Source of the DNA: Candidatus Obscuribacterales bacterium
GTDB taxonomy: Bacteria; Cyanobacteriota; Vampirovibrionia; Obscuribacterales; Obscuribacteraceae
Direction: 5' to 3'
Length of the DNA stretch: 64,000 nucleotides
Assembly: GCA_965229195.1 (NCBI GenBank)
Contig: OZ245871.1
Coordinates: 2,720,420 to 2,784,419, forward strand
Shown here: in pieces, positions 20,645-45,837 of the stretch
Layout: every line of letters starts with the position of its first letter
How positions within the stretch are numbered: the first letter of the stretch is position 1
Made by a program: the position numbers and the translations under genes
The notes under the pieces: generated by a model
The model's input: only the letters and a program-made list of their open reading frames with translations
Told to the model about the DNA's origin: nothing
Database searches by the model: none

Positions 20645-20669
20645 GGGTGCTCCATTGTATCGTGTTGGT

Positions 20670-25122: not shown

Positions 25123-25145
25123 AGAGTTGTCGACCGATGGAGCTC

Positions 25146-25161: not shown

Positions 25162-25572
25162 CGTGAAAGCTGTTGATTGGCAGCTGGTAGATGTTGCCCT
25201 TTTGCTGTCTAGTGGCCGTGAAGATTCCCAGAGAGGATCTCGTCAGGTGGTTCTTGCAAGGGCCGTTGTGGTGCTGGGCGTAGGCGGTAAATAAATCTCA
25301 GAAAGTTAGAAGGTGATGTATTCAAACTACTTGGCTCTTTGACATCAATACAAGATCTGAGTAGTAAAGAGTTGCAAAGAGTTGAGGCCGATATTATGGA
25401 GAGTTTAGATGTGGGGCCGTAGTAGTGCAGCTAGCGGAGTTTCATGGGGTGGGGAAAGGGTTTCAACTATAAAAACTAATAGATAGGCGAAAAAAGAAAG
25501 CAAAGTGAGAGCCGTGGCTCCTACTCTGCTTTCCCAAAAGAGAAGTTCTCTTTTTAGTGCCTCGATAGCTGC

Positions 25573-27141: not shown

Positions 27142-27197
27142 GCGCTAGGCTTATGGGCTTTGCGCATGTTTGAGTTTGTTGGTGAGTGAAACCAGCA

Positions 27198-27635: not shown

Positions 27636-28396
27636 AAAAATCTCCATGCAAGCAGCACCTGCCTAACTGCGAAACGCAAGCGTTAGGTATGTGCACAAGC
27701 AATAGGGGTTGGGGCGGAATTCGAATATTGGGGGGGTGAGAGAGACCTATTCGATTTATGAAAGTAGAAGATGTCTTGAATGTAGTGATGAGAGCTAAAC
27801 AGGATCAACTTCCACGCTCTCTAATAACTCTTAAAAGCACTAAACATTGTTAACAGACCGCTTTACATGCTCGCGTCAGCTCGCGCAGGTGGATTGTCAA
27901 GAGTTAAGCTCTGCTTTAGTCTTGGGCTTTGAAGATGCTTGCAGAGTAGGTGTTTTGGCGCCCACTGACAACCTCTTTTGCGCTTCTCTGCTTGGTTCTC
28001 AAGCAATTCTCATAATCTGCTTTAGATACATGGCTTGACATCACTTGATATCAAATGGCCATGCATCATAGGTTCCATAAGCACACCCAAACTCTTTCCC
28101 TTGCTCCAAAAAATATCCATCTAAAAGCGCACTAGTTCAACTTCTATATCACTTCTCCTTCACTCACCCTGGTGTGCTGCTCAGACTTCGTCTTGGTGAA
28201 ATCGTGAATATAAGCGCTTCTTGATGGAAACACTGTTCGGAAAAACAAGAATTGAAACACTCATTTTCTTCGCGTGCTTTTTTTACGCGGGTAATGAGTA
28301 ACACCATTTGGAATGGCCTGCTGGCATCAAGTGGTGATTTCGATCTGGGAAATTATCCGCAAGCTTTGCTTGCTTAAAAAAACAAAGGAGATCCAG

Positions 28397-28906: not shown

Positions 28907-30046
28907 ATGTTAGATTCAAACCATTTACCAACTGATCGCACTGCTCCAGCTGCCCTTGGCGGTAACAGTGCTGGTGTGCAGCGTGAATTGCTAGAGCAAT
29001 ATAGAATTCCTGCTCGTAGCAATGGCGCTTGCTCGCTCAATGATGCTTGCTCGCCCTTTAAGCCCGACTATGAGCGCAGAACTGAGTCTGGTCGTGCCTG
29101 GGACAAAGAAGCAAAGAAACAGCAAGGTAGCGGATTTGAAGTTGGCCCTGATGGCAAATATGAAGTGAAGCCTGGCGATAGCCTCTGGGGCATAGCTGAG
29201 CGGGCCATCAAGAAAGAAGGCGGCAAGTCTTCGCCAGCTGAAGTGCAGAAGCGCGTCAAAGAGCTGGTCGAAGCTAACAAAGAAAACTTACCAGGGCTTG
29301 ATTGCAATCCTCATTTATTGAAGCGCGGTGGAAAACTGAATATTCCAGGGCGTACCAATCAGGAGCAGCCGTCAGAAAAACCAGCGGAAAATCCAACACC
29401 GGGTAACGCCGCTAAGCCGTCAGAAAAACCCGCAGAAAATCTAACACCGGGTAACGCCGCTAAGCCGTCAGAAAAACCAGCAGAAAATCTGACACCAGGT
29501 AACGCCGCAAAACCTTCTGACAGCAGCTCAGACAAACCCAGCGACAAACCTGGTGAGGCTGTCCGACCTGATGATGTCTGCAAGCCTGCTGATATCTACA
29601 AAGATATGGCTAAGTTTCCCGAGCTCAGCCCCAAGGAATATTTCACGGCTTGCCGCATCAGCAAGGCTGTCATCGACGGTGATGCCGAAGCATTGAAGAA
29701 AGCCATGAGTGATTTTCCCGCCAACAAAGAATCTGGTGAGCGAGTTGCCCGCGCTCTCAATGAGACCTTCAGAGATCAGGGAATAGTGGTGGACTATAAC
29801 CAATACAACTTCTATCGCGCCTCTACTCCTGATAAGCAAGAGACAGCTAGTTCTTTCCGCATCTACCATCGCGGAGCTGAGCGTTATTTAGAAGTTGGCA
29901 AAGACAATGTTGGTATGGGTGGACCGGTGCGCCAGGGGCCTGGTGGCTCTATCGACTATGGAACGGTAGCCTATCACGGCGAAAGTCAACGCAAAGCAAC
30001 CATTGATGATCTCGCAGCAGCAATGAGACGCCGTTATTGTCCGTAA
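28907..30046 (+). CDS. LysM-domain protein with three tandem 16-aa repeats (KPSEKPAENxTPGNAA).
   Basis: LysM-like segment YEVKPGDSLWGIAERAI. AGGAAG RBS. 3 x 48-bp DNA repeats at 29369-29512. Confidence 0.7.
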   Translation: MLDSNHLPTDRTAPAALGGNSAGVQRELLEQYRIPARSNGACSLNDACSPFKPDYERRTESGRAWDKEAKKQQGSGFEVGPDGKYEVKPGDSLWGIAERAIKKEGGKSSPAEVQKRVKELVEANKENLPGLDCNPHLLKRGGKLNIPGRTNQEQPSEKPAENPTPGNAAKPSEKPAENLTPGNAAKPSEKPAENLTPGNAAKPSDSSSDKPSDKPGEAVRPDDVCKPADIYKDMAKFPELSPKEYFTACRISKAVIDGDAEALKKAMSDFPANKESGERVARALNETFRDQGIVVDYNQYNFYRASTPDKQETASSFRIYHRGAERYLEVGKDNVGMGGPVRQGPGGSIDYGTVAYHGESQRKATIDDLAAAMRRRYCP

Positions 30047-30149
30047 AATTTTCGTCCTTCAGCGAGCGTGATAAATAGCCTCTGTGTTTTTGAAGCCAAT
30101 GCTATTTTCGCGTTTTCTGACAATTCTGTTTTTCTCGAGGGGGAGGAAG

Positions 30150-30345
30150 AGGTGTGGTTGCTAAATGCCAACCACACCTCTTCCGTGCATGTGACTGTAG
30201 GTGTGGTTGCTAAATGCTAACCACACCTCTTCCGTGTCTGTGTTTGTAGGTGTGGTTGCTAAATGCTAACCACACCTCTTCCGTGTCTGTGTTTGTAGGT
30301 GTGGTTGCTAAATGCCAACCACACCTCTTCCGTGCGTGTGTCTGT
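30150..30345. repeat. Tandem array of 4 x 49-bp units. Each unit contains a 10-bp perfect inverted repeat (AGGTGTGGTT-gctaaatgcY-AACCACACCT) followed by CTTCCGTGyntgtgwyTGT.
   Basis: Unit boundaries 30150, 30199, 30248, 30297. The units differ at only a few positions. Confidence 0.9.
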
Positions 30346-30395
30346 ATATCCGATCGACTTACCTTGGCTGCTCGGCAATTTTGCCTCAAAACGGC

Positions 30396-30437
30396 ATTTG
30401 GCTGCCTAGTGCTAGCTTCGCCAAGGGGCAGCCAAAT
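30396..30437. other. 11-bp perfect-stem hairpin (ATTTGGCTGCC…GGCAGCCAAAT) with a 20-nt loop containing a CTAGTGCTAG palindrome.
   Basis: Seen in the sequence, 50 nt after the tandem hairpin array in the same 860-bp intergenic region. Confidence 0.5.
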
Positions 30438-30906
30438 TAGAGATTTGCATGGGTAAGCAGCTACTCTTTCAATTATTAAGATGACCGCTCAGCCTCATGG
30501 GGTGAGCAATTGCTTGCCTGGGTTGACCTTTGACAACCTGGATGGTTAGCGCCAACTGCGTCGATTTAATAATCTAGCTTGGCAAGCTTAGAGAATACTA
30601 CTTTACATCAATCTGTAATATGCGCCTTGGCGGGCTGCTAATTCGTAGGTTTTGAGTTCCACAACTCTTCCCGTTCGCACCCAAGCAAAGCACTCGAAAA
30701 ACAAACCCAGCGCATTACTTTCGATTCCTTCACCTTCCCCACAATGGAAGCGTGTCTTATCGAACGTCTGTTGATGTGCTGCGGTTTTGATTTTTATGAG
30801 TGCTGAGCTGGTCAATTCTGGAAGAGACGGTATCTAACTGTGCAATCGCGTCTGTGCTGCGAACCATCGGCTCCGTTGCACCATCAATTTCACCAAAGGA
30901 CAATTC

Positions 30907-33094
30907 TATGGACACCATGCTGTCACTGCTTCCCTGGCTTCCGGCCCTTCTCGGTCTGGTCGCTCTCGGCTTTCTGGCCACACGTTTCATCGTCAACGTC
31001 GGCCCTACCGAAATCGCCATCACCGAACGCCGCTTCCTCGGCAAGAAACTGCCTTCCAACCGCGCTTTTGCCTTGTCGGGCGAAGTCGGTATCCAGGCGG
31101 CTTACCTCTCCCCCGGCCTGCACTTCATTTTCTGGCCGATCACCCGCGTCATCAAGAAGGCTCCCTTCGTGGTGATCGGCTCCGGCCAACTTGGCGTCAT
31201 CACTGCTGCCGACGGCGAGTCCATGCCCTCTGGTCGCGTCTACGCTGAAGATGCCGCTGGCGATGCCCATGGCTCCTTCCAGGACCCGGCGGGCTTCCTC
31301 ACCAACGGCGGTATCCGCGGTAAGCAGCTGCGCTTCCTCACCAACGGTACGTTCAAGATTCACCCCTTCCTCTTCAAGGTCGACCTGATCGACAAGACTG
31401 TCGTGCCTGAAGGCAGTATTGGTGTTGTCACCGCTGCTGACGGTGCATCGTTGATCGAAGGCCAGCTGCTTGGTCAGCGCGCCACCGGTCACGACAACTT
31501 CCAGAAGGGTGAAACCTTCCTCAAGAACGGCGGCCAGAAGGGTCCGCAGATCGACTTCCTGCGTCCTGGTACCTACAACATCTTCTCCGACATGTTCAAG
31601 GTCGAGATGAAGCCGGCCATTCAGGTCAAGGAAAACCAGATCGGTATCGTCGAAGCCAAGTCGGGTGACCCGATGGGCAAAGACGACGTCGTTGCCGCTA
31701 CCCCCGAGATGAGCCTGCACATGTCCTACCAGGACGGCCAGGCCTTCCTCAACGGCGGTGGTAAGCGCGGCCCTCAGGAAGAGGTGCTTCGCCCCGGTAC
31801 GTACTACGTCAACCCCTACCTGTTCTCTATCACCATGCAGCCGCAGACGGTGATCAAGCAGGGCGAAGTGGGCGTGATGATCTCCAACATCGGCAAGGAC
31901 CCGACCGAACTGTTCGGCGAAGAAGCTCCGACTGCGGCGCCTGCTACCAAGCTGCCGGCCGTCATCAAGGCTCCGGCTGCTGCTGGCGCCACTGACGTCT
32001 CGGTCGCCGACAGCTCGCCGCTGACCGCTGGCGCCACTGACCCCGAGGAGACCCGCCACAACACCGGCGTGCGCGCTCGTCACGTGGTGCCGAAGGGCTA
32101 CCGCGGCATCCAGAAGGAAGTGCTCAACCCGGGCAAGTACAACATCAACCCGCTGGCCTTCTCGGTCATCGTGGTGCCCACCACCACTCGTTCCATCGAG
32201 TGGTCCGAGAACGAAAGCGCCAAGGACTTCGACCCGTTTGCTGTCGTTTCGCGCGACGGCTTCACCATGCAGGTTGAAGTGCGCTGCCAGTACCGCATCC
32301 TGCCCGAGAACGCGCCGTACGTGGTGCAGAAGCTGGGTTCGGTGGAAGAGCTGGAGAAGAACGTTCTGCATCCGCAGATCGACGGTATCTTCCGTGCCCA
32401 GGTCTCTCGTTCGCCGGCCATCAACTATCAGCAGGAGCGTGCCACCGAGCAGCTCGACGCTGAGAACGCCGTGAAGAGCGACCTGGTCAAGTACAAGGTC
32501 GAAGTGGTGTCGGTGATGATCTGCAACATCAAGCTCCCGCAGGAGCTGATGCACACCACCCAGGAGCGCAACCTGGCCGAACAGCGCGAGACGATGTACG
32601 ACGCCCAGGAAAAGGCGGAGAAGCGTCGTATCGAGTTCCAGGCCACCAAGTCGCAGGCTGACCAGCAGGACACCATCATCAAGGCCAAGGCTGGTATCGA
32701 GGTGGCCAAGCACGAGGCGGCTCAGATGGAAGAGCGCGCCAAGGGTAAGGCTGCTCAGACCCGCATCGAAGCGGAAGCTGATGCGGGCCGCGTCAAGACC
32801 GTCGGTGATGCCGAAGCCGGTGTCATCAAGGCCAAGGGTGAAGCGACCGCTGAAGCCTACTCCAAGCAGGTGGAAGCGCTGACCGCTCAGGGCGTTACCT
32901 CCATCGAGGTGACCAAGCTGCTCACCGCTTCTGGTCAGGCTCTGGTGCCGCAGGTTGTTGCCGGTGGCGACAACGGCGGTGGCAATGGTCTGGTCAATCT
33001 TCTGCTCGCCGACACGCTCATTCGCAACCGCGAAGAGAACGCTGCCGCGCGTGACCTGAAGAAGCCGGCCGCTGACACGACCGACAAGAAGTAA
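30907..33094 (+). CDS. SPFH/band-7 (flotillin-like) membrane protein with three internal ~70-aa N-terminal repeats and an Ala/Glu/Lys-rich coiled-coil C-terminus.
   Basis: N-terminal TM helix. Repeated FLxNGGxxGxQxxxLRPGTY motifs. SPFH-like core followed by an EA-rich coiled coil (…AEQRETMYDAQEKAEKRRIEFQATKSQADQQ…). AAAGGA RBS. Two tandem terminators follow. Confidence 0.75.
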
Positions 33095-33168
33095 GCTCCA
33101 CTTCTTTTTTCGGACTGGGGGTGGCGTCGACTGACTTGAAAAAGTTAGTTGGCGCCACCGCCTTTTTT
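33089..33168 (+). terminator. Two tandem rho-independent terminators. The first is GAAGT-aagctcc-ACTTC + TTTTTT at the stop codon. The second is GGGGTGGCG…CGCCACCGCC + TTTTTT.
   Basis: Both are stem-loops immediately followed by T6 runs. Confidence 0.75.
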
Positions 33169-33194
33169 AACTCACCACTAAAGGCTATCCAATC

Positions 33195-33527
33195 ATGGAT
33201 GCTTTCCAACTTTTCCAACTTTTTGTCCCCGCCTTGTGGGCATTTCTTGCCTGCATCTTGGGCGGTTTCGCCACCGGCGTTGTCGGTGTACTGGTGTTGA
33301 CCAACGTCTTCAAGGTCAACTATGAAACGGCTGGTCGTCGCAGCTTTGTTGTCGGTGTCGTAGGAACGGCACTGGCCATCGTTGTCGGCGCTCTGCTCAC
33401 AGCTACCAGCGCTGGCGGTTTTCTGCCCGCGTTCATTCTTATCGCCCCTTCCAGTGTCATCTACGCCCTTGCTGGCGTGGTTGTCGTTTTGCTGGCGTGG
33501 GGGGCGCTCATTCTCTCAGCCCGATAG
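33195..33527 (+). CDS. Small integral membrane protein (110 aa, 3-4 TM helices).
   Basis: Very hydrophobic ORF directly downstream of the SPFH gene. A possible SPFH-partner membrane protein, by inference. Confidence 0.5.
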   Translation: MDAFQLFQLFVPALWAFLACILGGFATGVVGVLVLTNVFKVNYETAGRRSFVVGVVGTALAIVVGALLTATSAGGFLPAFILIAPSSVIYALAGVVVVLLAWGALILSAR

Positions 33528-33539
33528 GAGAAATATTCT

Positions 33540-34658
33540 ATGAACGGACCTGCTCTATTACTTGTCGGTGCGGTTGTTTTGATTGGTCTTGCGGTGATCG
33601 TCTATCGATCGCTGAAGGGCCCGAAGTTGCCTGCACCCAATCCTTTTGACGCCGTCAGCCCTTCGCGGCCGCCGGCTTTTCCTGACAGCGTCGGTGAGCC
33701 GGTGGCCGCAGTCGCTTCAACCGCCGCTGATTCTGACTCTGACCAGTCGGATCAGCAAGAAGAAGATGCCGAGCCGGAGGAAGCCATGACCATCGCAGCC
33801 TATGTCGCTCAAGCTGAAGAGCAAGAAAAAGACGCTGATTTCGATCAAGCCATCGACAGCATCAGCGAAGCCATCGCCCTCGCTCAGGTTGAGTTCGGTG
33901 GCGATTCGGTGGAAGTGGCTCAGCTCCTGATTCGTCAGGGTCAGCTCTTTCAGCTGCGCGATTACCAGGAAGCCGCCGATGAAATCGACTGCGCCGAGTA
34001 TCTGCAGGGTCTCGCCATTCTTCAGCAGCGCTACGGTGGCGAAAGCGAAGAGCTTTTGCCGGTGCTCAAGCTCTTGATCTCCTGGTACTACCAGACTGGT
34101 GACCAGCAGAAGGCCGAGACGCTCATTCGCCGCAGTCAGAACATCATCGATGCTGTTTCTGACGCCAAGCGACTTGTGGCTGATCGCGCTGATGGCAGCA
34201 CCTACGCCCCTACCTTGAAGGTTTCACCCTTCAAAGTGCCGTTCACGAGCAGCGACAGCACCGCTGTCGAGTCGTGCAAAGAAGGCGACGAAGCCTTCGC
34301 TGCCGGCGAATACGACGACGCGGTTTCGGCTTTCGAGTCGGCCATCGAATCGGTGCAAACCGAGGTCGGTCGCGGTGCTCCCGAGCTGGCTCAGCTCTTC
34401 CATCGCCTCGGCCGTGTGCTGCAGGTGAAGGATGCTGACGAGCGCGACGACGACGGTGCTTTGTACACCGACCCGGCCGACAACTTCCAGATTGCGCTCA
34501 GCTTGCTGGTCAAGGCCCATGGCTACGATGCCGTGGTGCTGGTGCCGCTGCTGCTCGACCTGGCTGCCTTTGAAGACCAGCGCGGTGAGCACTACAAGGC
34601 CGAGGGTTATCTGCGTCGGCTGGCCGAAATCGAGCGCAACGCTCGCAACAAGCAGTAA
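33540..34658 (+). CDS. Hypothetical membrane-anchored acidic protein with TPR-like helical repeats (372 aa).
   Basis: N-terminal TM helix, a D/E-rich linker and repeated helical units. Starts 12 nt after the previous stop. Confidence 0.55.
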   Translation: MNGPALLLVGAVVLIGLAVIVYRSLKGPKLPAPNPFDAVSPSRPPAFPDSVGEPVAAVASTAADSDSDQSDQQEEDAEPEEAMTIAAYVAQAEEQEKDADFDQAIDSISEAIALAQVEFGGDSVEVAQLLIRQGQLFQLRDYQEAADEIDCAEYLQGLAILQQRYGGESEELLPVLKLLISWYYQTGDQQKAETLIRRSQNIIDAVSDAKRLVADRADGSTYAPTLKVSPFKVPFTSSDSTAVESCKEGDEAFAAGEYDDAVSAFESAIESVQTEVGRGAPELAQLFHRLGRVLQVKDADERDDDGALYTDPADNFQIALSLLVKAHGYDAVVLVPLLLDLAAFEDQRGEHYKAEGYLRRLAEIERNARNKQ

Positions 34659-34840
34659 AAAGAATAAAGCTCAGCTGTTGGCTGGGTAAGGAAATTCTTT
34701 TGGAGGGTCGTCGGGTCAGGAACACGCTTGTGTTCTTGCTCTCCGGCGACCCTCCTTTTTTTTGCGGGATCAAAGCCGCAACACTATCGAAGTAGAAAAT
34801 AGAAGCATGACCACAATTGGTCAACTAGCGGAAAAATGCC

Positions 34841-35422
34841 ATGACACAAGGCAACAAGGCAGCAGTAGACAGCGACGCTGTGAACTCTAATACCAGCGCA
34901 GCTCTAGGTTCGGCGCTGATCGCCACCCACGAAGCACTGCTGCTCACTGAAGCTGTTCGTCAAATCGATCAAGCTCTATTCTGGGCTCAACAGGGTCGCT
35001 CTGACCTTGTTACTGTTTTCACTAACATGGCTAAGCTTATGCTCCTTGAGGGCAATGGCTCTGGCAGTGAAAGCGAGTATTGGATCGACACCACCCGTAG
35101 TGCCATCGCCATCGAGCTGCAGAATCCTCGGCATGCCGTCGACTGCGCCAGCAAGGCACTAGCTTTGGCCGAAGTTATCTTCGCCCAAGATGCAGTGCAG
35201 CTCGGCGTTGCTCGAGGTAACTTAGGTAGAGCGCTTGCTTGCAGCGGAGGCCAGGCGGAAGAGGCTCGCAAGCTTCTCTCGCAGGGTATCTTTGCTCTCG
35301 CTGGAGTGAGCCACAAGCCTGCTGCCAGTTCAGGTGCGACGGCCAGGTTGCAGAAGTACTACAGCGACACCTTCATCGAATTCACCCGGGCCATTCAGAG
35401 TCTCCCTCCGCGGCCGCGCTAG
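34841..35422 (+). CDS. Hypothetical protein with TPR-like helical repeats (193 aa).
   Basis: ORF with protein-like composition. No specific motif. Confidence 0.45.
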   Translation: MTQGNKAAVDSDAVNSNTSAALGSALIATHEALLLTEAVRQIDQALFWAQQGRSDLVTVFTNMAKLMLLEGNGSGSESEYWIDTTRSAIAIELQNPRHAVDCASKALALAEVIFAQDAVQLGVARGNLGRALACSGGQAEEARKLLSQGIFALAGVSHKPAASSGATARLQKYYSDTFIEFTRAIQSLPPRPR

Positions 35423-36124: not shown

Positions 36125-36595
36125 ATTTGATTGACCTCGATTGCTAGTTTGTTGGCACAGGCATTAGTTCTTTCGCCTGTCTATTTATTCCCATATTGAG
36201 GCCATCCTACATCTTGCGTTACATCCAAATTTTGGCTGTGAGCTGAAAAGCCATTAAACATAGGCTTCTCGGGTATACACGTTTTCGTTAGTACGCATTC
36301 GAGAATCGACAGTCTATCTGGGTCGCCTGAAGATGAAAAAGTAAGTGGTGATGGCGCCTTGCCGGCGGGAGAGAGAAATGACTAATGTACTTCAACTACG
36401 AAATATCCCCTTCTTTGTTTTTATGCTTGCTTTGCTCTGCATTCTGCCTGAGCCAGCTTGTGCCTATCTAGATCCGTCTACTGGAAGCTATGCGATTCAA
36501 TGCGGCTTAGGTACTTTATTCGCTTTAGTATTCAATTCGCGCAGATTATGGGGTTGTGCTCAGTCTTACTTTTTCTCGATTGCGAGGAAGTGATT

Positions 36596-38011
36596 TTGAG
36601 TATTAGTACTAGAGAAGTCAGCACTTCCTCGTTTCGCGATCCGGCTGGCTGTGTTTTTCGAGAGAATAACGAGATCTATCGACAGGTCAACCTCGTGTAT
36701 AAGCCGCATTATGACTGGCTTTTTCAGTCAGGTTTGTATCAGGCCTTAGTGGCGAAAAATTTACTAATTGCCCATGAAGAAATTGAGTTGGTGAAAGAGG
36801 ATGAGCCGCAGGCTAAGTCTGCTGGCGATAATCGCACTAATATTTACAAGATTTGCAAACCCAAGCAAGTACCGTTTATTTCCTATCCCTACGAGTGGTG
36901 TTTTAGTCAACTGAAAGACGCGGCCTTAGCCACTCTTGAGATACAGTCTCTGGCTCTTAAGCATGGCATGATTCTCAAAGATAGCAATGCTTTCAATATT
37001 CAGTTTGTTAATGGTAGGCCTCTCTTAATAGATACACTCTCGTTTGAGCGCTATGAACCTGGCAGGCCGTGGGTCGCTTACCGGCAGTTTTGTCAGCATT
37101 TCTTAGCACCATTAGTATTGATGTCAACGGTAGATGTTCGCTTGGGTAGCCTTTCTCGCAACTATATTGACGGTATTCCCCTTGATCTAGCTTGCAAGCT
37201 TCTACCAACCCTGGCACTGATTCGTCCAAGCGTGGCAATACATTTAGCTATTCATGCTAATGCTCATAAAAACACAATTACTAAACTAGAATCTAGCGGT
37301 GAGCAATCGGGGTTCTCAAAAGATGCAATGTTGGGTCTTGTGGATAGCCTAAAGGGGGCTGTGGAAGCACTCAAGATTGCCAAAATCAAGTCTGATTGGA
37401 CTGGCTATTATGAAGACAATAACTACACTGAGGCGGCACAGCAGGAGAAGCAAAGGATCGTTTCTCGTTTGATCGACCAGACCAAACCAGGCATGCTCTG
37501 GGATTTTGGCGCTAATACCGGAACCTTTAGTGAGCTGTCGGCGGCTAAGGGAGTTTGCACTATATCAATGGATTTTGATCACAACTGCGTGGAGACGAAT
37601 TATCTAAAGAGTCGTGAATCGGGGCAGAATCTTTTGCCGCTGGTAGTAGACATGTCGCAACCAACACCGGCCATTGGTTGGGCCAATGCTGAAAGACAGA
37701 GGCTTGATCAGCGGGGCAAGGCCGATACAATTTTGGCTTTGGCACTGGTTCATCACTTGGCCATTGCTAATAATGTTCCTCTTGATCAAATTGCTGCTTA
37801 TTTTTCTAAGCTAGGCCATTGGCTAATTATTGAGTTTATTACCAAAGAAGATTCGCAAGTGAAACGCTTGCTGTCGAGCCGCAAAGACGTATTCGCCGAT
37901 TATTCCCAGGCATCTTTTGAAGCGAGCTTTTCGCAATATTTTTCTATCGTCGAACGCTTGCCCATTGTCGCTAGTCATAGAGCTATCTATTTACTTGAAA
38001 GTAAGGCCTAG
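36596..38011 (+). CDS. Class I SAM-dependent methyltransferase-domain protein with a large N-terminal domain. Start uncertain (TTG 36596, GTG 36590 or ATG 36458).
   Basis: Motif I-like LWDFGANTGTFSEL and a downstream acidic residue (SMDFDHN). GAGGAAG lies 5 nt upstream of the TTG. Confidence 0.6.
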   Translation: MSISTREVSTSSFRDPAGCVFRENNEIYRQVNLVYKPHYDWLFQSGLYQALVAKNLLIAHEEIELVKEDEPQAKSAGDNRTNIYKICKPKQVPFISYPYEWCFSQLKDAALATLEIQSLALKHGMILKDSNAFNIQFVNGRPLLIDTLSFERYEPGRPWVAYRQFCQHFLAPLVLMSTVDVRLGSLSRNYIDGIPLDLACKLLPTLALIRPSVAIHLAIHANAHKNTITKLESSGEQSGFSKDAMLGLVDSLKGAVEALKIAKIKSDWTGYYEDNNYTEAAQQEKQRIVSRLIDQTKPGMLWDFGANTGTFSELSAAKGVCTISMDFDHNCVETNYLKSRESGQNLLPLVVDMSQPTPAIGWANAERQRLDQRGKADTILALALVHHLAIANNVPLDQIAAYFSKLGHWLIIEFITKEDSQVKRLLSSRKDVFADYSQASFEASFSQYFSIVERLPIVASHRAIYLLESKA

Positions 38012-38066: not shown

Positions 38067-39725
38067 ATGCTCAAAGCTGTGCCACTGCATTCGATACTGT
38101 TTGGTGTTCTCCCCGTACTGTGCGCCTACTCAAGTTTGGTTGCCTATCTTCTGCCTGAAGAATTGGTGTTGCCGCTAATTGTGAGCCTGGTTCTGGCAAT
38201 TATAGTGCTTTTGCTTTCCTATGCCTGTCTGCGTAATTGGTGCAGAGCTGGAATCGTCACATCAGCGCTGGTGCTGCTGAACTTCTCTTTTGAAGCCATG
38301 GCCGCTCCTGCCAATCGACTATTAAGTAGCTTTGGCTTGCCGCATGATGACAGAGTTTATCTTGTGCCTTTTACGCTTTTGATTTTCATTATCATCTATC
38401 TTTTGCTCAAGGCAAAAAGTGACTATAAGGCAGCGACATCGTGCCTCAACATAATGAGCGTATTGCTGGTGACTGGCAATGCTTTCTATATTGCCTGGCA
38501 TGAGTACAAAATATGTCTAACCATGAGCAAGATCTATCAGAATGACGATAAGGAGCTGGCTGCCATTGATCTGAAGCCGGTGCAGCATTTAAGCAATTCA
38601 AGCAGTTCGAACGATTCGCCAGATATTTATTACTTTATTCTGGATGCTTTTGGCCGCAGCGATACTCTCAAAGAAATCTATGATTTCGATAACTCATCGT
38701 TTATAGATGGCCTCAAAAAGCGGGGTTTCGTCATTCCTGCTGGCAGTCGCAGTAACTATCAGATGACCTGTCTGTCGTTGCCTTCGTCTTTGAATATGCA
38801 GTATCTAGATTATTTAGAGCCAACATTGGGTCGCGATTCTACTGATTACAGTGTGCTTTACCGCTTGATTCAGCGCAACAAAGTTACTTCATTGCTGAAA
38901 GGCCTGGGATATCGCTATGTTAATGTTCGCTCTGGCTGGAGCCCGACTGACTATATGCCGAATGCAGACGTCAATGTTGGCTTTGCCTATGGCAATGTTT
39001 TCCACCTTGCCCTGCTGCGAAACACTCTGATAGGTCCGTGGCAACGTGATTTTGACTTCTTGGGCTGGGCGGCGCGAAAGGTTCGCCTTTATGGCCTGCA
39101 GAATATTGAGTCAATTGCTCAATTGCAGTTTCAGTCTCAGGCTCAATCAGTTGTGCCGCCGCGTTCCACTTCTGCCCCGAAATTTGTTTTTGTTCACATC
39201 GTCGTTCCCCATCCACCCTTTCTCTTTAATGAAGATGGTAGCACTTACCCCCTTGGCGTAATTTCGCTATCTGACAAGTTTGAGAAGGAGAAATATGTCG
39301 CCCAGGTGAAGTTTATTCAGAAACAAGTTCTGGCGATGTTGGATCAGCTGGATAAGAACCCCAGGAAGAAAGTTGTGATCATTCAGGGTGATCACGGCCC
39401 GGCTTTGCAAAATGGTAGTGATGGTAATCCTTCGCCGGCCTTCCTGCGCGAGCGTATGCGCATATTAAATGCCTACCGACTGCCCGATGCTGATTCAAGC
39501 CTTATTTATGATGGAATAACTCCGGTAAACTCTTTTCGTGTCATCCTTAACCACTACTTTGAGGCTAAACTTCCGCTGCTGGCCGATAAATGCATCTACT
39601 CTCCTAACCCAACTCCTTTGCAGTTCGTTGACGTCACTAAAGAGGTAAGCAGAGACGTAACTAACAAAGTAACCGAGAAAGCGACAACTGATCTGCCAAC
39701 GAAAGTGGCAACGGATACTCATTAA
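38067..39725 (+). CDS. Membrane-anchored sulfatase-like hydrolase/transferase (alkaline-phosphatase superfamily; LTA-synthase/PEA-transferase-like).
   Basis: ~5 N-terminal TM helices followed by a sulfatase-like N-terminus (YYFILDAFGRSDT…, VFVHIVVPHPPF…, IIQGDHGP). Confidence 0.6.
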   Translation: MLKAVPLHSILFGVLPVLCAYSSLVAYLLPEELVLPLIVSLVLAIIVLLLSYACLRNWCRAGIVTSALVLLNFSFEAMAAPANRLLSSFGLPHDDRVYLVPFTLLIFIIIYLLLKAKSDYKAATSCLNIMSVLLVTGNAFYIAWHEYKICLTMSKIYQNDDKELAAIDLKPVQHLSNSSSSNDSPDIYYFILDAFGRSDTLKEIYDFDNSSFIDGLKKRGFVIPAGSRSNYQMTCLSLPSSLNMQYLDYLEPTLGRDSTDYSVLYRLIQRNKVTSLLKGLGYRYVNVRSGWSPTDYMPNADVNVGFAYGNVFHLALLRNTLIGPWQRDFDFLGWAARKVRLYGLQNIESIAQLQFQSQAQSVVPPRSTSAPKFVFVHIVVPHPPFLFNEDGSTYPLGVISLSDKFEKEKYVAQVKFIQKQVLAMLDQLDKNPRKKVVIIQGDHGPALQNGSDGNPSPAFLRERMRILNAYRLPDADSSLIYDGITPVNSFRVILNHYFEAKLPLLADKCIYSPNPTPLQFVDVTKEVSRDVTNKVTEKATTDLPTKVATDTH

Positions 39726-39817: not shown

Positions 39818-40726
39818 ATGAATCCGTTTGAAATACATGGCCCAGCATATCTGGTGTTTTATTTTATGGTTTGCAGCACAGTTTTTATGGCTGCATATGC
39901 CGTTAGAGGAAGCCTTCTAAATCATGCCGCTAAAGCGAATGATCGCACCCAGAATGTCGAAGCTAAGTCGTTAGCTCAGACATTAGAACCATATGAAGCA
40001 GCTTTTCTTGCCGGTGGTGTTGAGCGAGTTTTCCTCACTGCGTGTGGCAGTCTTGCTCGTCATAACCTCATTGAAATTGACGGGGTTAGAGATAAGGTCA
40101 AAATTACTGGCTCAGCTAATTCTAAAGTTTACGCCGGTTTAGATCGAATCGAACGAGCATTGATTAGTCGCTGTAGCGGCTCCGGTGAGTCTTTGTCGTC
40201 GTGCAAAGCGGCGGTGACCACTGCTACTGCTGATTTAAAGCGCAAGTTAGCAATGAACGGCTTGATCGTTGATTCAAGTCAGAACACTACAGTTCAGATC
40301 TTGCCTGGTTTTATCTACTTGTTTGTTGCTCTGCTGTTTGCAGTACCCAAGTTTATAATTGCCAGCCAGATGCACTTGCCCTACACATTTTTGGTTTTCG
40401 AAATGGCAATTGCTGTGGCCGCTAGTTATCTTCTTTTTCGCACAGACAATTCAAGGACGGTTAAAGGTGATCGGGTCTTTCGCGCTTTGAGTGATGGTAA
40501 TTCAGCTTTGAGACTGACCCATGCCACCAATCCATCCAGCCTTTCCCTTAGAGATTGCGCCCTAGCTTATGGAGTATTCGGCGCTTTGGCTCTGGCCGGT
40601 GACCCTTTCATGGCTGCTCATGCTGGGTTGCACCGAGCCTATGCCGGTAGTAGCGATTCGAGCGGCTGCGGTAGTAGCTGTGGCAGCAGTTGCGGCGGCG
40701 GATGCGGTGGCGGTTGTGGTGGCTAA
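39818..40726 (+). CDS. Multi-pass membrane protein ending in a Cys/Gly-rich tail (…AGSSDSSGCGSSCGSSCGGGCGGGCGG). Resembles the TIGR04222-type membrane protein family, from memory. Candidate membrane-anchored substrate/precursor of the downstream MNIO.
   Basis: Purine-rich RBS. Several TM helices. The tail is encoded at ~40640-40723. Its stop codon is 2 nt before the ATG of the DUF692 gene. Confidence 0.75.
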   Translation: MNPFEIHGPAYLVFYFMVCSTVFMAAYAVRGSLLNHAAKANDRTQNVEAKSLAQTLEPYEAAFLAGGVERVFLTACGSLARHNLIEIDGVRDKVKITGSANSKVYAGLDRIERALISRCSGSGESLSSCKAAVTTATADLKRKLAMNGLIVDSSQNTTVQILPGFIYLFVALLFAVPKFIIASQMHLPYTFLVFEMAIAVAASYLLFRTDNSRTVKGDRVFRALSDGNSALRLTHATNPSSLSLRDCALAYGVFGALALAGDPFMAAHAGLHRAYAGSSDSSGCGSSCGSSCGGGCGGGCGG

Positions 40727-40727
40727 T

Positions 40728-41564
40728 ATGACTAATGTCACTACCATGACTAAAGAGAACAAGTCGCTTCAGGCTATTCCGCAGCTAGGAATTGGCTTCC
40801 GTCCTGAGCTTGCTCGCTTCATTGAACAACAAGAAAATATTCAGTTCGTCGAAATCATAGCTGAAGATTTTACGCATCTAGAGTGTGTTCCCCAGGCCTT
40901 GCGCGATTTGCAAAAGCGTGGTGTGACGATTATTCCTCACAGCTTGTCGCTCTCTGTCGGTGGAGCAGAGCGAGTTGCAGTAGAGCGAATTGAGCATTTG
41001 AACAGTCTGGCTCAATATTTTGACTCACCTTTTGTCAGCGATCATATTGCATTTGTGCGGGCTGGCAATATTGAGAGTGGTCATCTCTTGCCGGTGCGGC
41101 GTACCGAGGCTAATTTAGCGGTGGTCTGCGAAAACGTTCATGCGGTAAAAGCTGGCTTGTCTGTGCCTTTTGTCTTAGAGAATATTGCCACTACTTTTGA
41201 CTGGCCAGACAATGAAATGGATGAAGCGACTTTTGTCACTGCCGTTTTGGAGCAAACAGACTCGCGCTTATTGTTGGATGTATCAAACCTCTTTGCTAAT
41301 AGCCACAATCTCAATTTTGATGCCATTGGCTATTTGCAGTCTCTTCCCCTTGAGCGTCTCGAGTATGTTCATATGGCCGGTGGAATCTTCAAAAATGGTC
41401 TCTATCATGATAGTCACTGTCATTCTCTCAAAGAGCAGTCACTCAAGCTCTTAAGCGCATTGAAAGCTATCTGTTCGGTGCCGCGGGTCATGCTTGAGCG
41501 TGATGATAGCTTTCCATCCGTGGCAGAGCTAGTTGATGAGTTGGAGGCAATAGCCAATGCCTGA
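40728..41564 (+). CDS. DUF692 / MbnB-like protein (multinuclear non-heme iron-dependent oxidative enzyme, MNIO; TIM-barrel).
   Basis: N-terminus IPQLGIGFRPELARFIEQ…QFVEIIAEDF plus HSLSLSVGG and later His/Asp/Glu blocks characteristic of the UPF0276/DUF692 family. Translationally coupled to both neighbours. Confidence 0.8.
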   Translation: MTNVTTMTKENKSLQAIPQLGIGFRPELARFIEQQENIQFVEIIAEDFTHLECVPQALRDLQKRGVTIIPHSLSLSVGGAERVAVERIEHLNSLAQYFDSPFVSDHIAFVRAGNIESGHLLPVRRTEANLAVVCENVHAVKAGLSVPFVLENIATTFDWPDNEMDEATFVTAVLEQTDSRLLLDVSNLFANSHNLNFDAIGYLQSLPLERLEYVHMAGGIFKNGLYHDSHCHSLKEQSLKLLSALKAICSVPRVMLERDDSFPSVAELVDELEAIANA

Positions 41565-42030
41565 AGAAGAGTTTGCATTTGACACTGGCGCGCAGGCGAG
41601 CTTGGAGAGCAAGCGTCTGAACATGGCACAGGAGCAAAAAGAACTTATCGAAGCCTTGCTCTGCGGCGCTGCCCACCCGGCCGGATTTGACTCGACCCGC
41701 TTGCAATCGGCCTCTGAGGCCCTGGTGCGTAAAAGAGTTCGCTGCATGCAAAGAGCCCATCCTTTAGTGCAAGAGATTTGTCCACGCGACAACGATTCAA
41801 TTTTAGAGGCGCTGCACCAATTTATTCGTGAAAACCCGTCAGTGCACCCTCGGGGGCCATACTTCGATGCCCTGGCATTTCTCTCCTATCTTGGTCTGGA
41901 AAATTCCTCCAGCCTTGGCTGGAAGCCGAGCCGCCTGGCTGTTTGGAAAGCTGGCTGGATGGCTTTATGGAATGCCATTGGGAAGGTTTTATGCAAGACC
42001 GGCTGGACCCGGTTGGACAAACCAGATTAG
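41557..42030 (+). CDS. Short DUF2063-like MNIO partner protein (MbnC/TglI/BufC-analogous). Tentative.
   Basis: Its start overlaps the DUF692 stop (ATGCCTGA). Loose match to the DUF2063 N-terminal region (…RLQSASEALVRKRVRCMQRAHP…FIRENPS…YFDALAFLSYL). Confidence 0.45.
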   Translation: MPEEEFAFDTGAQASLESKRLNMAQEQKELIEALLCGAAHPAGFDSTRLQSASEALVRKRVRCMQRAHPLVQEICPRDNDSILEALHQFIRENPSVHPRGPYFDALAFLSYLGLENSSSLGWKPSRLAVWKAGWMALWNAIGKVLCKTGWTRLDKPD

Positions 42031-42111
42031 GGCGTCGGTTGAAGCGTTACCGACCAAACTACTAACCATACTACTAACCAAACTATCTACGCCAGGTTTA
42101 TAATCGGCGTA

Positions 42112-43902
42112 ATGCAAATCAAACTGACAAACCAAGGCTTCATACTTGTGCTCATTCCTCTGGCAGTGCAAGTGGCTTTTTTGGTGGCATTTTTTTGCAT
42201 GTTGCAGCAGGCTGAAAACGAGATTATTCAAGAGCAGCAGGCCCGTGATATGGTGACCAGTCTCAATCATATTGCCAGAACTATTTTGGCCTCGAGTGCT
42301 GGTGTTACGTTGCAAACTCCTGACGGCGGCACTGTCGGCGACGGTTTTAGGCCTTCCACGCCGGGTGATTCTCTGCCCCGTGAGTTCGCTAAATTAAGAC
42401 GCTTGTCGGTTGGTCATCCTGAGCAGATAAAGGCTATTGAGCATCTAGAAGTAACATGGCACGAGAGCTGGCATGCCATGAAGGAGATCAAGAACTATGC
42501 TAAGTCTGGTGAGAATTTCACAGTATTAGCCAAGGTGGCGAAGCTGCAAGTGAAGCTGCAGTCTGTCTATCGGGCGATTGAAGCTTGTGCAATTTACTTT
42601 GAACAATTGCAGGCTCAGGGGCCAGTGGTGCAGGAAGAGTTGAGGCAGCAGCAAAAGATGGCGCTATTAGCCTTTCTTTTAGTTGATGTGGCCATGGCGC
42701 TTGGCCTCTGCATCTACTTTAGTAAGCAGACCGGTGGTCGCTTGAAGACTCTGATGCAGAATGCTCGCAGTCTGGTGATTGGCAAACCGATTGAGGGGCG
42801 TTTGACCGGTAGCGATGAGTTGGCTGAGTTGCAACGCACTTTGATTCAGATGGCTGCTTCCCTGGCGCAGGCTAGACAAAAGGAACGAGCCATCCTGGAC
42901 AATGCTGGCGATGTCATTTGCTCTCTCGATGGCAATAGCTCTATCGTTACTACCAATAATGCCGCTCAAAAGCTCTGGGGCTTTAGCGAAGATGACTTGC
43001 TCGGGCGTCGTTTGGCGGAGTTAATTGACCCGGCGGATTGGGATGTAACTCGCCAAAAATTGGCAGAAATCAAAAAGACTGGCCAAGCTCAAGACATTGA
43101 GAACAGCGTCGTGACGGCCTCGGGAGCGGCCCTGGCTATGTTGTGGAATGTCAATTGGTCCGAGTCGGAAAAAAGTTATTTTTGCGTTGCTCACGATATC
43201 ACTGCAAGACGGCAGCTGGAGCGCCTCAAGCTAGAATTTATGTCAATGATTACCCACGACATTCGCTCGCCGATTAATTCGGTTCAGGCATTTCTATCAA
43301 TGTTAGCTGAGAAGTTTTACGGTGAGTTGAATGAGAAGGGCATGCAGCGCCTGAAGTCACTAGAAGAAAGTGTCAACCTTGTCAGTCGGCTGATTTCTGA
43401 CCTACTTGATTTAGAGAAGGCTGAATCGGGGATGCTTGTTTTAGAGCCTATTGATGCTGTATCTACTCAAATAATCGCTAGCTCAATTGATGTTGTACGT
43501 TCTATGGCAGAGCGAAAACAGGTTGCTGTAAGCCAGAAGGGAACTGCTTTTGATCTGTTCGTTGATCAAAATAGAATGATTCAGGTGTTGGTTAATTTGA
43601 TTGCCAATGCCATCAAGTTTTCTCCTGCAGGAACGACTGTGTCTGTAGAGTGTCGTCAGGAGGGAAAAGAGGCAATATTTGTTGTGGCGGATCAAGGGCC
43701 TGGTATAAAGCCTGAGCATCAAGCTCGTATTTTTGATCGCTTCGAGCAAATTGTTGGTCGCGGCAAAACCAGCGCAGGCAGTGGTTTGGGCTTGGCCATT
43801 GCTAAAGCCATAGTAGAGCAACATAATGGACGTATTGCTTTAGAAAGTGATGGTGAGCACGGCAGCACATTTGTTGTGCGTCTGCCAATCGGCGATGTTT
43901 GA
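42112..43902 (+). CDS. Sensor histidine kinase (2 TM helices, PAS, HisKA, HATPase_c).
   Basis: PAS-like ILDNAGDVICSLDGNS…; H-box HDIRSPINSVQ; G-boxes DQGPGI and GSGLGLAIAKAIVEQHNGRI. Confidence 0.85.
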   Translation: MQIKLTNQGFILVLIPLAVQVAFLVAFFCMLQQAENEIIQEQQARDMVTSLNHIARTILASSAGVTLQTPDGGTVGDGFRPSTPGDSLPREFAKLRRLSVGHPEQIKAIEHLEVTWHESWHAMKEIKNYAKSGENFTVLAKVAKLQVKLQSVYRAIEACAIYFEQLQAQGPVVQEELRQQQKMALLAFLLVDVAMALGLCIYFSKQTGGRLKTLMQNARSLVIGKPIEGRLTGSDELAELQRTLIQMAASLAQARQKERAILDNAGDVICSLDGNSSIVTTNNAAQKLWGFSEDDLLGRRLAELIDPADWDVTRQKLAEIKKTGQAQDIENSVVTASGAALAMLWNVNWSESEKSYFCVAHDITARRQLERLKLEFMSMITHDIRSPINSVQAFLSMLAEKFYGELNEKGMQRLKSLEESVNLVSRLISDLLDLEKAESGMLVLEPIDAVSTQIIASSIDVVRSMAERKQVAVSQKGTAFDLFVDQNRMIQVLVNLIANAIKFSPAGTTVSVECRQEGKEAIFVVADQGPGIKPEHQARIFDRFEQIVGRGKTSAGSGLGLAIAKAIVEQHNGRIALESDGEHGSTFVVRLPIGDV

Positions 43903-43908
43903 ATGATC

Positions 43909-44586
43909 TTAAATGTTGTTGCTGGACAGTTTGTATCCGACGCCATAAATCGTTTGAATTGCTGACTTGTCATCGACATCTATTTTTTTGCGCAAGCGTT
44001 TGATCCAGGTACGAACTGTTTCTGGGCCAGCTTCTGAATCTGACTTCCAAACATGAGCAAGAATGGCGTCTTGACTGAATACCCGATCAGGGTGACGCAT
44101 GAAGAACTCAAGTAAAGCTAGTTCTTTTGGTAACAGCTCTACTTTCTTTCCTGCCACCTCTGCTACCAAAGATTTTGTATTTAAGCTGAGGTGGGCTACT
44201 TTCAAAACTTCTTCTTCAAGCTGCGCTGGCCGTCTTAATAGCGCCCTGATGCGAGCTGATAGTTCGCGCAGATCGCAGGGCTTGGTGAGGTAATCGTCAG
44301 CTCCACTGTCAAAGCCACTGGTTTTATCGTCGATGCTGCCAAGGCCTGTGAGCATTATCACTGGGCTGACACCGCCATTCTTGCGGTAGCTCTGGCAGAC
44401 CTCTACCCCGGATAGACCTGGTAGCTGCCAATCTAGAACTATCAAATCAAAGCGAAATGACTTGGTCATCTCCAGACCCGAATCGCCATCATGGCAGACT
44501 TCTACCGTATGATTCTCGCGCCCTAGCCAATCGGTGACAATGGCAGCGAAGGCTTCGTCGTCTTCAACAAGTAGTATTTTGGCCAT
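43909..44586 (-). CDS. OmpR-family response regulator (receiver + winged-helix).
   Basis: Receiver motifs (MAKILLVEDDE…DLIVLDWQLPGLSG) and a Trans_reg_C end (…TIYGVGYKL). Convergent with the kinase, 6 nt apart. Confidence 0.9.
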   Translation of the reverse strand: MAKILLVEDDEAFAAIVTDWLGRENHTVEVCHDGDSGLEMTKSFRFDLIVLDWQLPGLSGVEVCQSYRKNGGVSPVIMLTGLGSIDDKTSGFDSGADDYLTKPCDLRELSARIRALLRRPAQLEEEVLKVAHLSLNTKSLVAEVAGKKVELLPKELALLEFFMRHPDRVFSQDAILAHVWKSDSEAGPETVRTWIKRLRKKIDVDDKSAIQTIYGVGYKLSSNNI

Positions 44587-44820
44587 ATCTGTTTATGGAC
44601 ACCCCGAGCAGCGACAAAAGTATAACCGTTTCACAGTGCTGTCACAATTGCTGCTTAGGATGCAAATACGGAAGTTCGGAAACCAAGCACAAACTTCTAG
44701 CACAAAAACGCTAAGCACAAAAACACCAAGAAGGCGACCTTTGTTGCCGGTCGAAAGACTATAGGTGTTTGAGTTTTACTATCTTCGGCTTTGCCGATAT
44801 TTTCTATATTTGGAGGTTCT

Positions 44821-45837
44821 ATGAGCGATCATTTACGACCGTCGTTTCAGGCTGAGAATTTTCGCGGAAATGACTCAAGCCCCATGCGTGATGCGGCTTG
44901 CCAGGCATATTCTCCTGAGAATCAAGCAGTTTTTCGTATCGATATTCGCTCGACGCAAGGTACAGAGTCGCTTCCTAGTTTGCAAATAGTATTTGAACAA
45001 GACGGCAATAATTCGCGCAATTTTTCTGGACGCGATAGTGGTGCGGGCTCACGAGGTCAGTTTGATGACAGTCGCAGAGATTTTTCGCCGCTTGATCGCA
45101 GCTCAAATTCTGATCGCTTTTCGCACTCGGGTGAATCCTCTCAATCAGACCAATTTTCACGCAATCCCTGGCACCACGGTCATGAGCATCACTCCCATGG
45201 CCATCACCGTTTGAATGATTCTTCTTCGTCTAATGGTCCGCAATTTTTAGGTAATGATCGTACGGGTACGTCTGATTTTGGTCAGTCCTCGCCCTTTGAT
45301 CGCCGCTCAGGCAACGACAATTCTTTTGTAAGTACCGACTCACCGCCCTGGGAAAACCAAAGTGATTTCAGTCGGGGCTACGGGAGTGGCGACCGAGGCG
45401 GGTACAGAGATAACTCTCGCTATGCCTCTCCGCTCGAATTACTAAATCAATTAGCTGAATATTTCCGCCAGAATGAGCTGTCTAATTCGCTTGACGGCAA
45501 TGGCTTTACCTCTGGTCCTGGTTCGCAGTTTCGCTTAGTTGATAGTACTTATCGACCGCCGACTGAATTGCCGACTCTTTCTGGTCTGCCTAAGCCAGGT
45601 GACCTCTTGAATGGCTTACCAACCCCTCCAGGCTTGCCAAAGCCAGGCGACCTCTTGAGTGGCCTGCCAACCCCTCCAGGCTTGCCTAACCCAGGTGACC
45701 TCTTGAGCGCCTTGCCGGCCCCTCCAGGCTTGCCTAACCCAGGTGACCTCTTGAGCGCCTTGCCGACCCCTCCTGGTCTACCTTCGCCTAAGAATATCTT
45801 TGATAAGTTGCCAAATCCGTTCAAGCTGTTCGGTTAG
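44821..45837 (+). CDS. Low-complexity Ser/Asp/Asn/Gly-rich protein with five C-terminal 16-aa repeats (GLPxPGDLLxxLPTPP).
   Basis: GGAGG RBS upstream of MSDHLRP. 48-bp DNA repeats at ~45584-45795. Confidence 0.55.
   Translation: MSDHLRPSFQAENFRGNDSSPMRDAACQAYSPENQAVFRIDIRSTQGTESLPSLQIVFEQDGNNSRNFSGRDSGAGSRGQFDDSRRDFSPLDRSSNSDRFSHSGESSQSDQFSRNPWHHGHEHHSHGHHRLNDSSSSNGPQFLGNDRTGTSDFGQSSPFDRRSGNDNSFVSTDSPPWENQSDFSRGYGSGDRGGYRDNSRYASPLELLNQLAEYFRQNELSNSLDGNGFTSGPGSQFRLVDSTYRPPTELPTLSGLPKPGDLLNGLPTPPGLPKPGDLLSGLPTPPGLPNPGDLLSALPAPPGLPNPGDLLSALPTPPGLPSPKNIFDKLPNPFKLFG

Follow-up and report, generated by a model that had tools for sequence, protein, structure and literature searches.

A three-gene cassette in which a Cys-tailed membrane protein is coupled to a putative cysteine-modifying enzyme lies within a 64,000-nucleotide stretch of contig OZ245871.1 from a Candidatus Obscuribacterales bacterium; the whole of this stretch is referred to as the window. 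The first open reading frame (ORF1) encodes a three-transmembrane (TM) protein of the TIGR04222 family that ends in a disordered Cys-Gly tail, ORF2 encodes an oxidative enzyme dependent on multinuclear non-haem iron (MNIO; DUF692) and ORF3 encodes a helical MNIO partner. The tail is real and selected, not a compositional accident, and on balance it is probably the substrate of the MNIO. We favour this assignment because the adjacency of the genes is conserved, the genes are translationally coupled, the tail is under selection, the metal ligands of the enzyme are intact, its nearest families modify Cys residues and no alternative ORF is present at the locus. A preliminary description of the window had proposed the same relationship, and it stands as a plausible and the best reading of the locus; the evidence for it is circumstantial, consisting of gene context, conservation and analogy. 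The description had also called a protein-tethered substrate unusual. The idea itself was anticipated, as TIGR04222 proteins with C-terminal Cys-rich segments have already been put forward in silico as putative protein substrates of MNIOs with 'PME-type 2' partners (Antoine et al., 2025, Microb Genom, PMC12452194).

Conservation of the Cys-Gly tail

The C-terminus of ORF1 reads ...AGSSDSSGCGSSCGSSCGGGCGGGCGG and is followed by a TAA stop codon at positions 40724-40726. The tail contains five [GS]-C-G units and is disordered in the AlphaFold2 (AF2) model, with a predicted local distance difference test (pLDDT) score below 50. A word-indexed protein search was found to be biased towards the tail, and it was replaced by a word-index-free search with residues 1-275 of ORF1 only. 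This tail-blind search covered 1.8 billion cluster representatives, and the best 150 matches were examined. At least three Cys residues are present within the last 30 residues in 133 of these 150 matches, and most of the other 17 are truncated proteins. The bodies of the relatives are 25-35% identical to that of ORF1 and their tails converge on the pattern ...CG[SG][SG]CGGGCGGG(G)CGGCG[GS]. Across the 133 tails, the residue after Cys is Gly (88%) or Ser (12%) and the residue before it is Gly or Ser in 98% of cases; the Cys residues are mostly spaced 3-5 residues apart, with a mean of 5.7 per tail. The presence of a linker ahead of the tail is also conserved in these relatives, with a more variable sequence in which no cleavage motif is conserved.

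The last 21 codons of ORF1 were compared with those of related loci (numbered with the prefix L and described below). Between L011 and the window there are 13 synonymous differences and no nonsynonymous difference, in proteins that are 37% identical over their whole length; the corresponding counts are nine and zero for L007 and eight and zero for L008. On these comparisons the tail is the most strongly constrained segment of ORF1. A slippage-prone repeat in the underlying DNA was considered and rejected, as only an imperfect 12-nucleotide repeat is present and the codons are diversified. The proposal that the tail is the only Cys-rich candidate substrate at the locus was borne out: no other small Cys-containing ORF was found in or between the cassette genes on either strand.

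Organization of the cassette

The three ORFs form one translationally coupled cassette in this Melainabacteria-type genome. A single base, not two nucleotides as previously described, separates the stop codon of ORF1 from the ATG of ORF2 (40728). The TGA of ORF2 (41562-41564) overlaps the start of ORF3 (ATG at 41557) in the sequence ATGCCTGA, giving an overlap of eight nucleotides and confirming the overlap reported earlier. Both the TAA-N-ATG and the ATGCCTGA junctions are kept in close relatives. A longer form of ORF2 starting at 40569 was rejected on two grounds, the conservation of the TAA-N-ATG junction and the start of the Pfam domain, which falls at residue 20 in the short form; the extension corresponds to an Ala/Val-rich alternative reading frame of the tail DNA. 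The ORF coordinates of the preliminary description were all correct, and its gene identities also hold, with ORF1 belonging to TIGR04222, ORF2 to DUF692 and ORF3 to the DUF2063-like partners, and the neighbours being a PAS-containing kinase and a regulator of the OmpR type.

The MNIO and its partner

ORF2 matches the Pfam family PF05114 (MbnB_TglH_ChrH) with a score of 245.8 bits (cut-off 25) over profile positions 2-260 of 263, in agreement with its earlier assignment to DUF692. The nearest NCBIfam model is that of the bufferin maturase BufB (NF050167; 178.3 bits, below the equivalog cut-off of 310), followed by HvfB (NF003818; 166.4 bits, below the cut-off of 360). The scores against ApyH (107 bits), ChrH (60 bits) and MbnB (TIGR04159; 36 bits, cut-off 325) are likewise below the respective equivalog cut-offs. 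By these profile scores, ORF2 lies near the Cys-modifying bufferin/oxazolin branch (BufB and HvfB) and is a member of no named subfamily. Among solved structures, the best sequence match is an MNIO from Histophilus somni (PDB entry 3BWW).

The iron ligands of MbnB are H54, H90, E133, D163, N166, H192, D208, H210 and E239 (PMC9060507). Mapping by motif and spacing gives H71, H106, E151, D184, N187, H215, D228, H230 and E257 as their counterparts in ORF2, and none of the nine positions varies among 16 TIGR04222-linked MNIOs drawn from different phyla. By this mapping ORF2 has the full set of MNIO iron ligands. It has no signal peptide and should therefore be cytoplasmic.

The partner protein is less readily recognized from its sequence. 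ORF3 had been described as loosely resembling DUF2063; the corresponding profile (PF09836) gave a sub-threshold match of 15.5 bits (E = 0.021, cut-off 27.2), and a scan of the local Pfam and NCBIfam libraries returned no significant match. The assignment to PF26136 (SCO6045_C) is a precomputed database annotation, carried by the identical database protein (P0121) and by 119 of the 120 ORF3 relatives listed. An AF2 model built with 97 diverse relatives (mean pLDDT 81.8) consists of six helices and no strands. The C-terminal RiPP recognition element (RRE), a winged-helix domain with a β-sheet, is not present in this model of only 157 residues (RiPP, a ribosomally synthesized peptide that is modified post-translationally). 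In structure ORF3 resembles the solved MNIO partners, and its gene directly follows that of the MNIO. A profile of the ORF3 family searched against PDB sequences gave chance matches only; the link to known partners is visible only at the level of the fold. Despite the weak profile score, the identity of ORF3 as a DUF2063-like partner is accepted: it is a helical, RRE-less MNIO partner of the 'PME-type 2' kind of Antoine et al.

Conservation of the cassette across phyla

Related loci were collected by scanning one genome per species with tail-less TIGR04222 patterns derived from five sequences, which returned 43 loci. ORFs were called in each and searched with the proteins of the window, and five further proteins were looked up singly, giving a total of 48 loci. 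An MNIO gene lies immediately downstream of the TIGR04222 gene on the same strand in 21 of the 43 scanned loci, and the order of the two genes is the same in all 21. These loci come from Obscuribacterales, Myxococcota, Alcaligenaceae, Blastocatellia, Gemmatimonadales, Thermoanaerobaculia, Bryobacterales/Solibacteraceae and Phycisphaerales. The same arrangement was found in all five single look-ups, with SCO6045_C as the next gene in three of them. The pairing of tail and MNIO first noticed in the window recurs, then, in 26 of 48 loci across many phyla, and the genes around the cassette are otherwise unrelated. Neither a protease nor an exporter is conserved beside it in these 26 loci.

In 16 of the 21 scanned loci with an MNIO, the next gene encodes a protein of the ORF3 family; this count includes L011, where a full ORF3-like domain is fused to the MNIO (8764-10164). 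Shorter forms with a similar helix-...-KR motif were also found, either as a free mini-ORF of 73-80 residues after the MNIO (L027, 7126-7347; L036, 9696-9938) or as a short C-terminal extension of the MNIO itself (L033, 8753-9901; L042, 8539-10035).

Fold and membrane topology of ORF1

ORF1 matches the NCBIfam model TIGR04222 with 101.1 bits (cut-off 43) over residues 15-260 and profile positions 2-229 of 229, as expected from the preliminary description; a scan of the local Pfam library gave no match. The TIGR04222 family has long been flagged in TIGRFAMs/NCBIfam. The AF2 model of ORF1 was built from a 107-sequence alignment (pLDDT 88.9, predicted template modelling score 0.82). In this model TM1 is part of a helix spanning residues 9-41, with the membrane segment at approximately residues 9-30. 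It is followed by two winged-helix-like modules, each a helix-turn-helix with a hairpin (residues 49-96 and 103-146), by the TM2-TM3 hairpin (153-185 and 190-208) and by four short helices (215-277) that lead into the disordered tail. Searches for similar folds with the complete model yielded nothing informative, and they, like the family searches, gave no transporter-like match.

The orientation in the membrane was assessed from the distribution of Lys and Arg residues over the 107 ORF1 homologues. Ahead of TM1 the mean count is 0.4, and it rises to about 2.6 directly behind this segment; it is 2.2 ahead of TM2, about 2.7 for the TM2-TM3 loop and its surroundings and about 3.9 beyond TM3. For an orientation with the N-terminus outside, the totals are 8.7 on the inside and 3.1 on the outside. 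The architecture of some relatives also bears on this point. Long TIGR04222 variants begin with a signal-less soluble domain, referred to here as the HLHLTY domain, which is followed by an extra TM segment and then by the conserved NPFD..GP start, and in split variants the HLHLTY domain is a separate soluble protein. The charge counts and these variants both assign the winged-helix-like body to the inside and the N-terminus of the core to the outside, and the folded body of ORF1 is probably cytoplasmic. TIGR04222 proteins have been described as having 'large periplasmic domains' and a periplasmic tail, with the prediction method unstated (PMC12452194); the probable cytoplasmic placement of the body conflicts with that description.

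The side of the membrane on which the tail lies, that of the body or the opposite one, depends on the segment 241-262 (LALAxGLFG). Its hydropathy is borderline at 1.42, with values of 1.55-1.92 in the long variants, and AF2 models it as an 11-residue helix only. We slightly prefer a tail that faces the cytoplasm.

Proposed mechanism

If the tail is the substrate, a cytoplasmic complex of the MNIO and its partner would use O2 to oxidize the five tail Cys residues, by analogy with BufB, HvfB and MbnB. As with bufferins, oxazolin and methanobactin, the expected products would be 5-thiooxazoles or oxazolone/thioamide pairs, each Cys losing 4 Da. As no protease or exporter is encoded at the locus, the modified product would remain anchored in the membrane, where the tail could act as a tethered array that chelates a soft metal (probably copper) or is redox-active. 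As the partner has no RRE, the folded body of ORF1 may, more speculatively, serve in recognition, its winged-helix-like modules offering the enzyme complex a surface to dock on in place of a leader peptide. A tail on the inside could be modified in situ; for one on the outside, modification would precede the passage of the short tail through the membrane.

Evidence against the assignment and alternative explanations

Several observations weigh against the tail as the MNIO substrate. The first is that a Cys-Gly-tailed TIGR04222 protein is present with no MNIO within about 8 kb in 17 of the 43 scanned loci (L017-L021, L025, L026, L029-L032, L034, L035, L037, L038, L040 and L041). A tailed protein in such loci shows that the tail is not dependent on an adjacent MNIO. 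Two further loci, L023 and L024, have neither an MNIO nor an HLHLTY domain beside the tailed protein. In the published survey a third of the complete genomes with TIGR04222 have no MNIO gene at all (PMC12452194), so that the tail can evidently function without one. The same survey notes that Asp, Asn, Phe and Tyr are targets of MNIOs as well (PMC12452194). The chemistry of the named subfamilies cannot be transferred to ORF2 with confidence because it scores below every equivalog cut-off, and a periplasmic tail would make the timing of the modification awkward. Finally, a literature search for PF26136, SCO6045 or an experimental study of TIGR04222 returned one entry in a transcriptomics table only.

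Most of the loci that lack an MNIO have another companion, however. In all 17 of those listed above, a His-rich domain of about 165 residues (...WHLHLTY...FHHxPTKGG) is fused to the TIGR04222 protein or encoded directly before it. This HLHLTY domain has the precomputed assignment PF27765, and it gave no match in the local Pfam and NCBIfam copies or among PDB sequences. The MNIO and the HLHLTY domain never occur together in the sampled loci, where the tail is almost always accompanied by one or the other as a dedicated companion. This mutual exclusion is not reported in Antoine et al. (2025).

These loci lend support to the strongest alternative, in which the tail works as unmodified thiolates (for example as a Cu(I), Zn or Fe-S-type site), with the MNIO and its partner having a different substrate or servicing the tail non-covalently. 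The Cys-Gly tail occurs without a nearby MNIO in 19 of about 40 informative loci, the genomic survey cited above points the same way, and the composition of the tail is indistinguishable between MNIO-linked and MNIO-less proteins. It is, however, hard to explain the strict coupled adjacency of the two genes in 26 loci with variable flanks without a direct relationship between them; there is no alternative Cys-bearing ORF at the locus for the enzyme to act on, and the HLHLTY companion in the 17 MNIO-less loci suggests that the tail normally needs a dedicated enzyme-like partner. We consider this alternative unlikely.

The large size of ORF1 relative to typical RiPP precursors raises another possibility, namely that it is a membrane scaffold, an exporter or an immunity component and that a small precursor is encoded elsewhere; unannotated short precursors are known from the literature in some MNIO clusters. 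The searches within and between the genes on both strands, which found no small Cys-containing ORF, argue against this, as does the lack of a transporter-like fold or family match for ORF1. The part of ORF1 that is most conserved is, moreover, a Cys repeat of the kind that is modified by this branch of MNIOs, and a scaffold role with a distant precursor seems very improbable. We find it just as hard to credit that ORF1 is a giant membrane-bound leader from which an unlinked protease frees a modified Cys-Gly peptide as a secreted metallophore in the manner of a conventional RiPP: this would fit the analogy with methanobactin and bufferins, the published suggestion that the N-terminal moiety takes part in biogenesis and the conserved, more variable linker ahead of the tail, but that linker has no conserved cleavage motif and no protease or exporter is conserved beside the cassette in any of the 26 loci.

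Modification of the tail by the MNIO is therefore retained as the preferred explanation, and a broader, tentative model may be built on it. In this model, which we regard as possible but rather less than probable, the MNIO would modify a folded, tethered membrane protein through its cytoplasmic winged-helix-like body, with no RRE or leader, and the [GS]-C-G tail would serve generally as a membrane-anchored module, dependent in every case on a dedicated cytoplasmic metalloenzyme-like companion, either an MNIO with SCO6045_C or the unrelated HLHLTY domain. If so, there would be two convergent ways to mature or load the same tail. To our knowledge, all MNIOs characterized so far act on soluble peptides or secreted small proteins. 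A tethered membrane-protein substrate would, if correct, carry MNIO chemistry beyond natural-product biosynthesis and into the post-translational modification of proteins proper. The tail would then represent a novel type of metal-binding or redox element, anchored in the membrane and distributed over many phyla. With the basic idea already in print, the value of the present locus lies in its testability more than in surprise. It offers a compact test case with three coupled genes, five target Cys residues, no tailoring enzymes and possibly a dedicated regulator.

Genes surrounding the cassette

The coordinates of the cassette and of the two-component system that follows it are given in Table 1. 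The kinase has two TM segments around a putative sensor region of about 150 residues, ahead of its PAS, HisKA and HATPase_c domains. The best NCBIfam match of the regulator is RppA (199.8 bits, below the cut-off of 250), and neither protein reached an NCBIfam equivalog cut-off. The kinase gene adjoins the cassette in L001-L010 and lies 3 kb downstream of it in L011, and the regulator is kept in L001-L009 and L011; the linkage spans TIGR04222 identities down to 37%. Neither gene was found beside the cassette outside Obscuribacterales (L001-L011), that is, in the remaining loci and the five look-ups. The PAS kinase and OmpR-type regulator of the preliminary description are thus present as described, but they are a lineage-specific neighbour and not part of the cassette core. 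They may regulate or respond to the system in Obscuribacterales.

Table 1. Positions of the cassette genes, the Cys-Gly tail and the adjacent two-component system in the window.
Feature	Position	Strand	Basis or remark
ORF1, TIGR04222 membrane protein, 302 aa	39818-40726	+	NCBIfam match, AF2 model, hydropathy
Cys-Gly-Ser tail, ORF1 residues 277-302, SSDSSGCGSSCGSSCGGGCGGGCGG	40646-40723	+	Candidate substrate or metal-binding segment
ORF2, MNIO (DUF692) enzyme, 278 aa	40728-41564	+	PF05114
ORF3, MNIO partner, 157 aa, DUF2063-like, SCO6045_C / 'PME-type 2'	41557-42030	+	PF26136, AF2 model
Sensor histidine kinase, 596 aa	42112-43902	+	PAS, HisKA, HATPase_c (Pfam)
OmpR-family response regulator, 225 aa, convergent with the kinase	43909-44586	-	Response_reg and Trans_reg_C

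A scan for promoters and terminators over 35.9-45 kb gave counts within about two standard deviations of shuffled controls; it returned no terminator between ORF3 and the kinase gene and is uninformative on co-transcription of the kinase.

Divergent from the regulator gene is an ORF of 348 residues (44791-45837, + strand) that encodes a low-complexity protein with PGDLL/PTPPGLP repeats. The protein is disordered and contains the His-rich motif HHGHEHHSHGHH, which its orthologues in L001-L009 retain. It may be among the targets of the regulator and may bind metal, and the presence of HHGHEHHSHGHH in a protein encoded beside the regulator gives a weak hint of a link between the system and metals.

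On the other side, a polytopic membrane protein of the sulfatase family (38067-39725, + strand) is encoded directly upstream of the cassette and is preceded by a methyltransferase-like ORF (36458-38011, + strand) with a sub-threshold match to Methyltransf_23. These two genes are kept with the cassette only in L001-L008, and not in L009 or beyond.

Other neighbours were seen in some of the related loci. A gene of about 250 residues with weak nucleotidyltransferase matches (NTP_transf_2 / ANT-like) lies directly upstream of the TIGR04222 gene in 11 loci outside Obscuribacterales, eight of them with an MNIO (for example L012:3852-4619, L013:1260-2033, L015:216-980 and L033:7273-8004, together with seven further loci). 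It is absent from the window, and L045 and L048 have an unannotated gene of 250-253 residues at the same position. Two single cases, with no conserved association, concern transport genes: in L044 a heavy-metal P-type ATPase (HMBD and E1-E2_ATPase domains; 9557-10861) is encoded 2.6 kb downstream of the cassette, in which the MNIO gene ends at 6981, and in L045 an efflux set comprising an outer-membrane factor, a membrane-fusion protein and a major facilitator superfamily (MFS) transporter lies upstream of the cassette (1-3908).

In the window as a whole, tRNA and Rfam scans of the 64 kb gave no match. The G+C content is 55-59% in the blocks 20000-28000 and 30000-35000 and 45-50% elsewhere, and an ORF of 2428 residues is present at 9912-17198.

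Comparison with known systems

The cassette differs from the systems that act on small peptides. In the methanobactin (MbnABC) and pearlin (TglHI) systems the substrate is a short leader-core peptide, which undergoes cleavage and export or serves as a scaffold, and the partner proteins of these systems share 11-19% sequence identity with ORF3. The HvfABC (oxazolin) system of Haemophilus influenzae is closer, as its substrate is protein-sized and has repeated Cys-Gly motifs. The motif in HvfA is EGKCG rather than [GS]-C-G, however, and HvfA, unlike the membrane protein ORF1, carries a signal peptide and is secreted in soluble form. The partner HvfC is a full DUF2063-RRE protein, in contrast to the RRE-less ORF3.

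The bufferins (BufA/BufB/BufC; Buf1 with DUF2282, and Buf2) share with the present cassette multiple Cys residues as the presumed targets and a DUF2063-type partner gene directly after the MNIO, and their copper-chelating thiooxazole product provides the model for the chemistry proposed here. Unlike the bufferins, ORF1 is integral to the membrane. It begins with a TM anchor and not with a Sec signal peptide, and it has none of the DUF2282, Buf2 and Buf_6/12Cys signatures; in addition, ORF3 lacks the RRE and there is no DoxX gene.

The closest resemblance is to the clusters described by Antoine et al. (PMC12452194). These have in common with the window a TIGR04222 membrane protein that carries a Ser/Gly/Cys tail at its C-terminus, an MNIO whose near relatives are the enzymes of the bufferin and oxazolin systems and a partner with a DUF2063-like structure that escapes the Pfam signature. 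The published set is mostly from Actinomycetota, whereas the present locus is from Obscuribacterales and adds a lineage-specific kinase and regulator. The locus belongs to this published, experimentally uncharacterized kind. To that description the present analysis adds the conservation of the tail in a tail-blind search and the purifying selection on it, the identity of ORF3 at the level of the fold, the invariant set of ligands in the MNIO, the mutual exclusion of MNIO and HLHLTY domain as companions, the confinement of the two-component system to one lineage and an argument on topology that runs against the published one.

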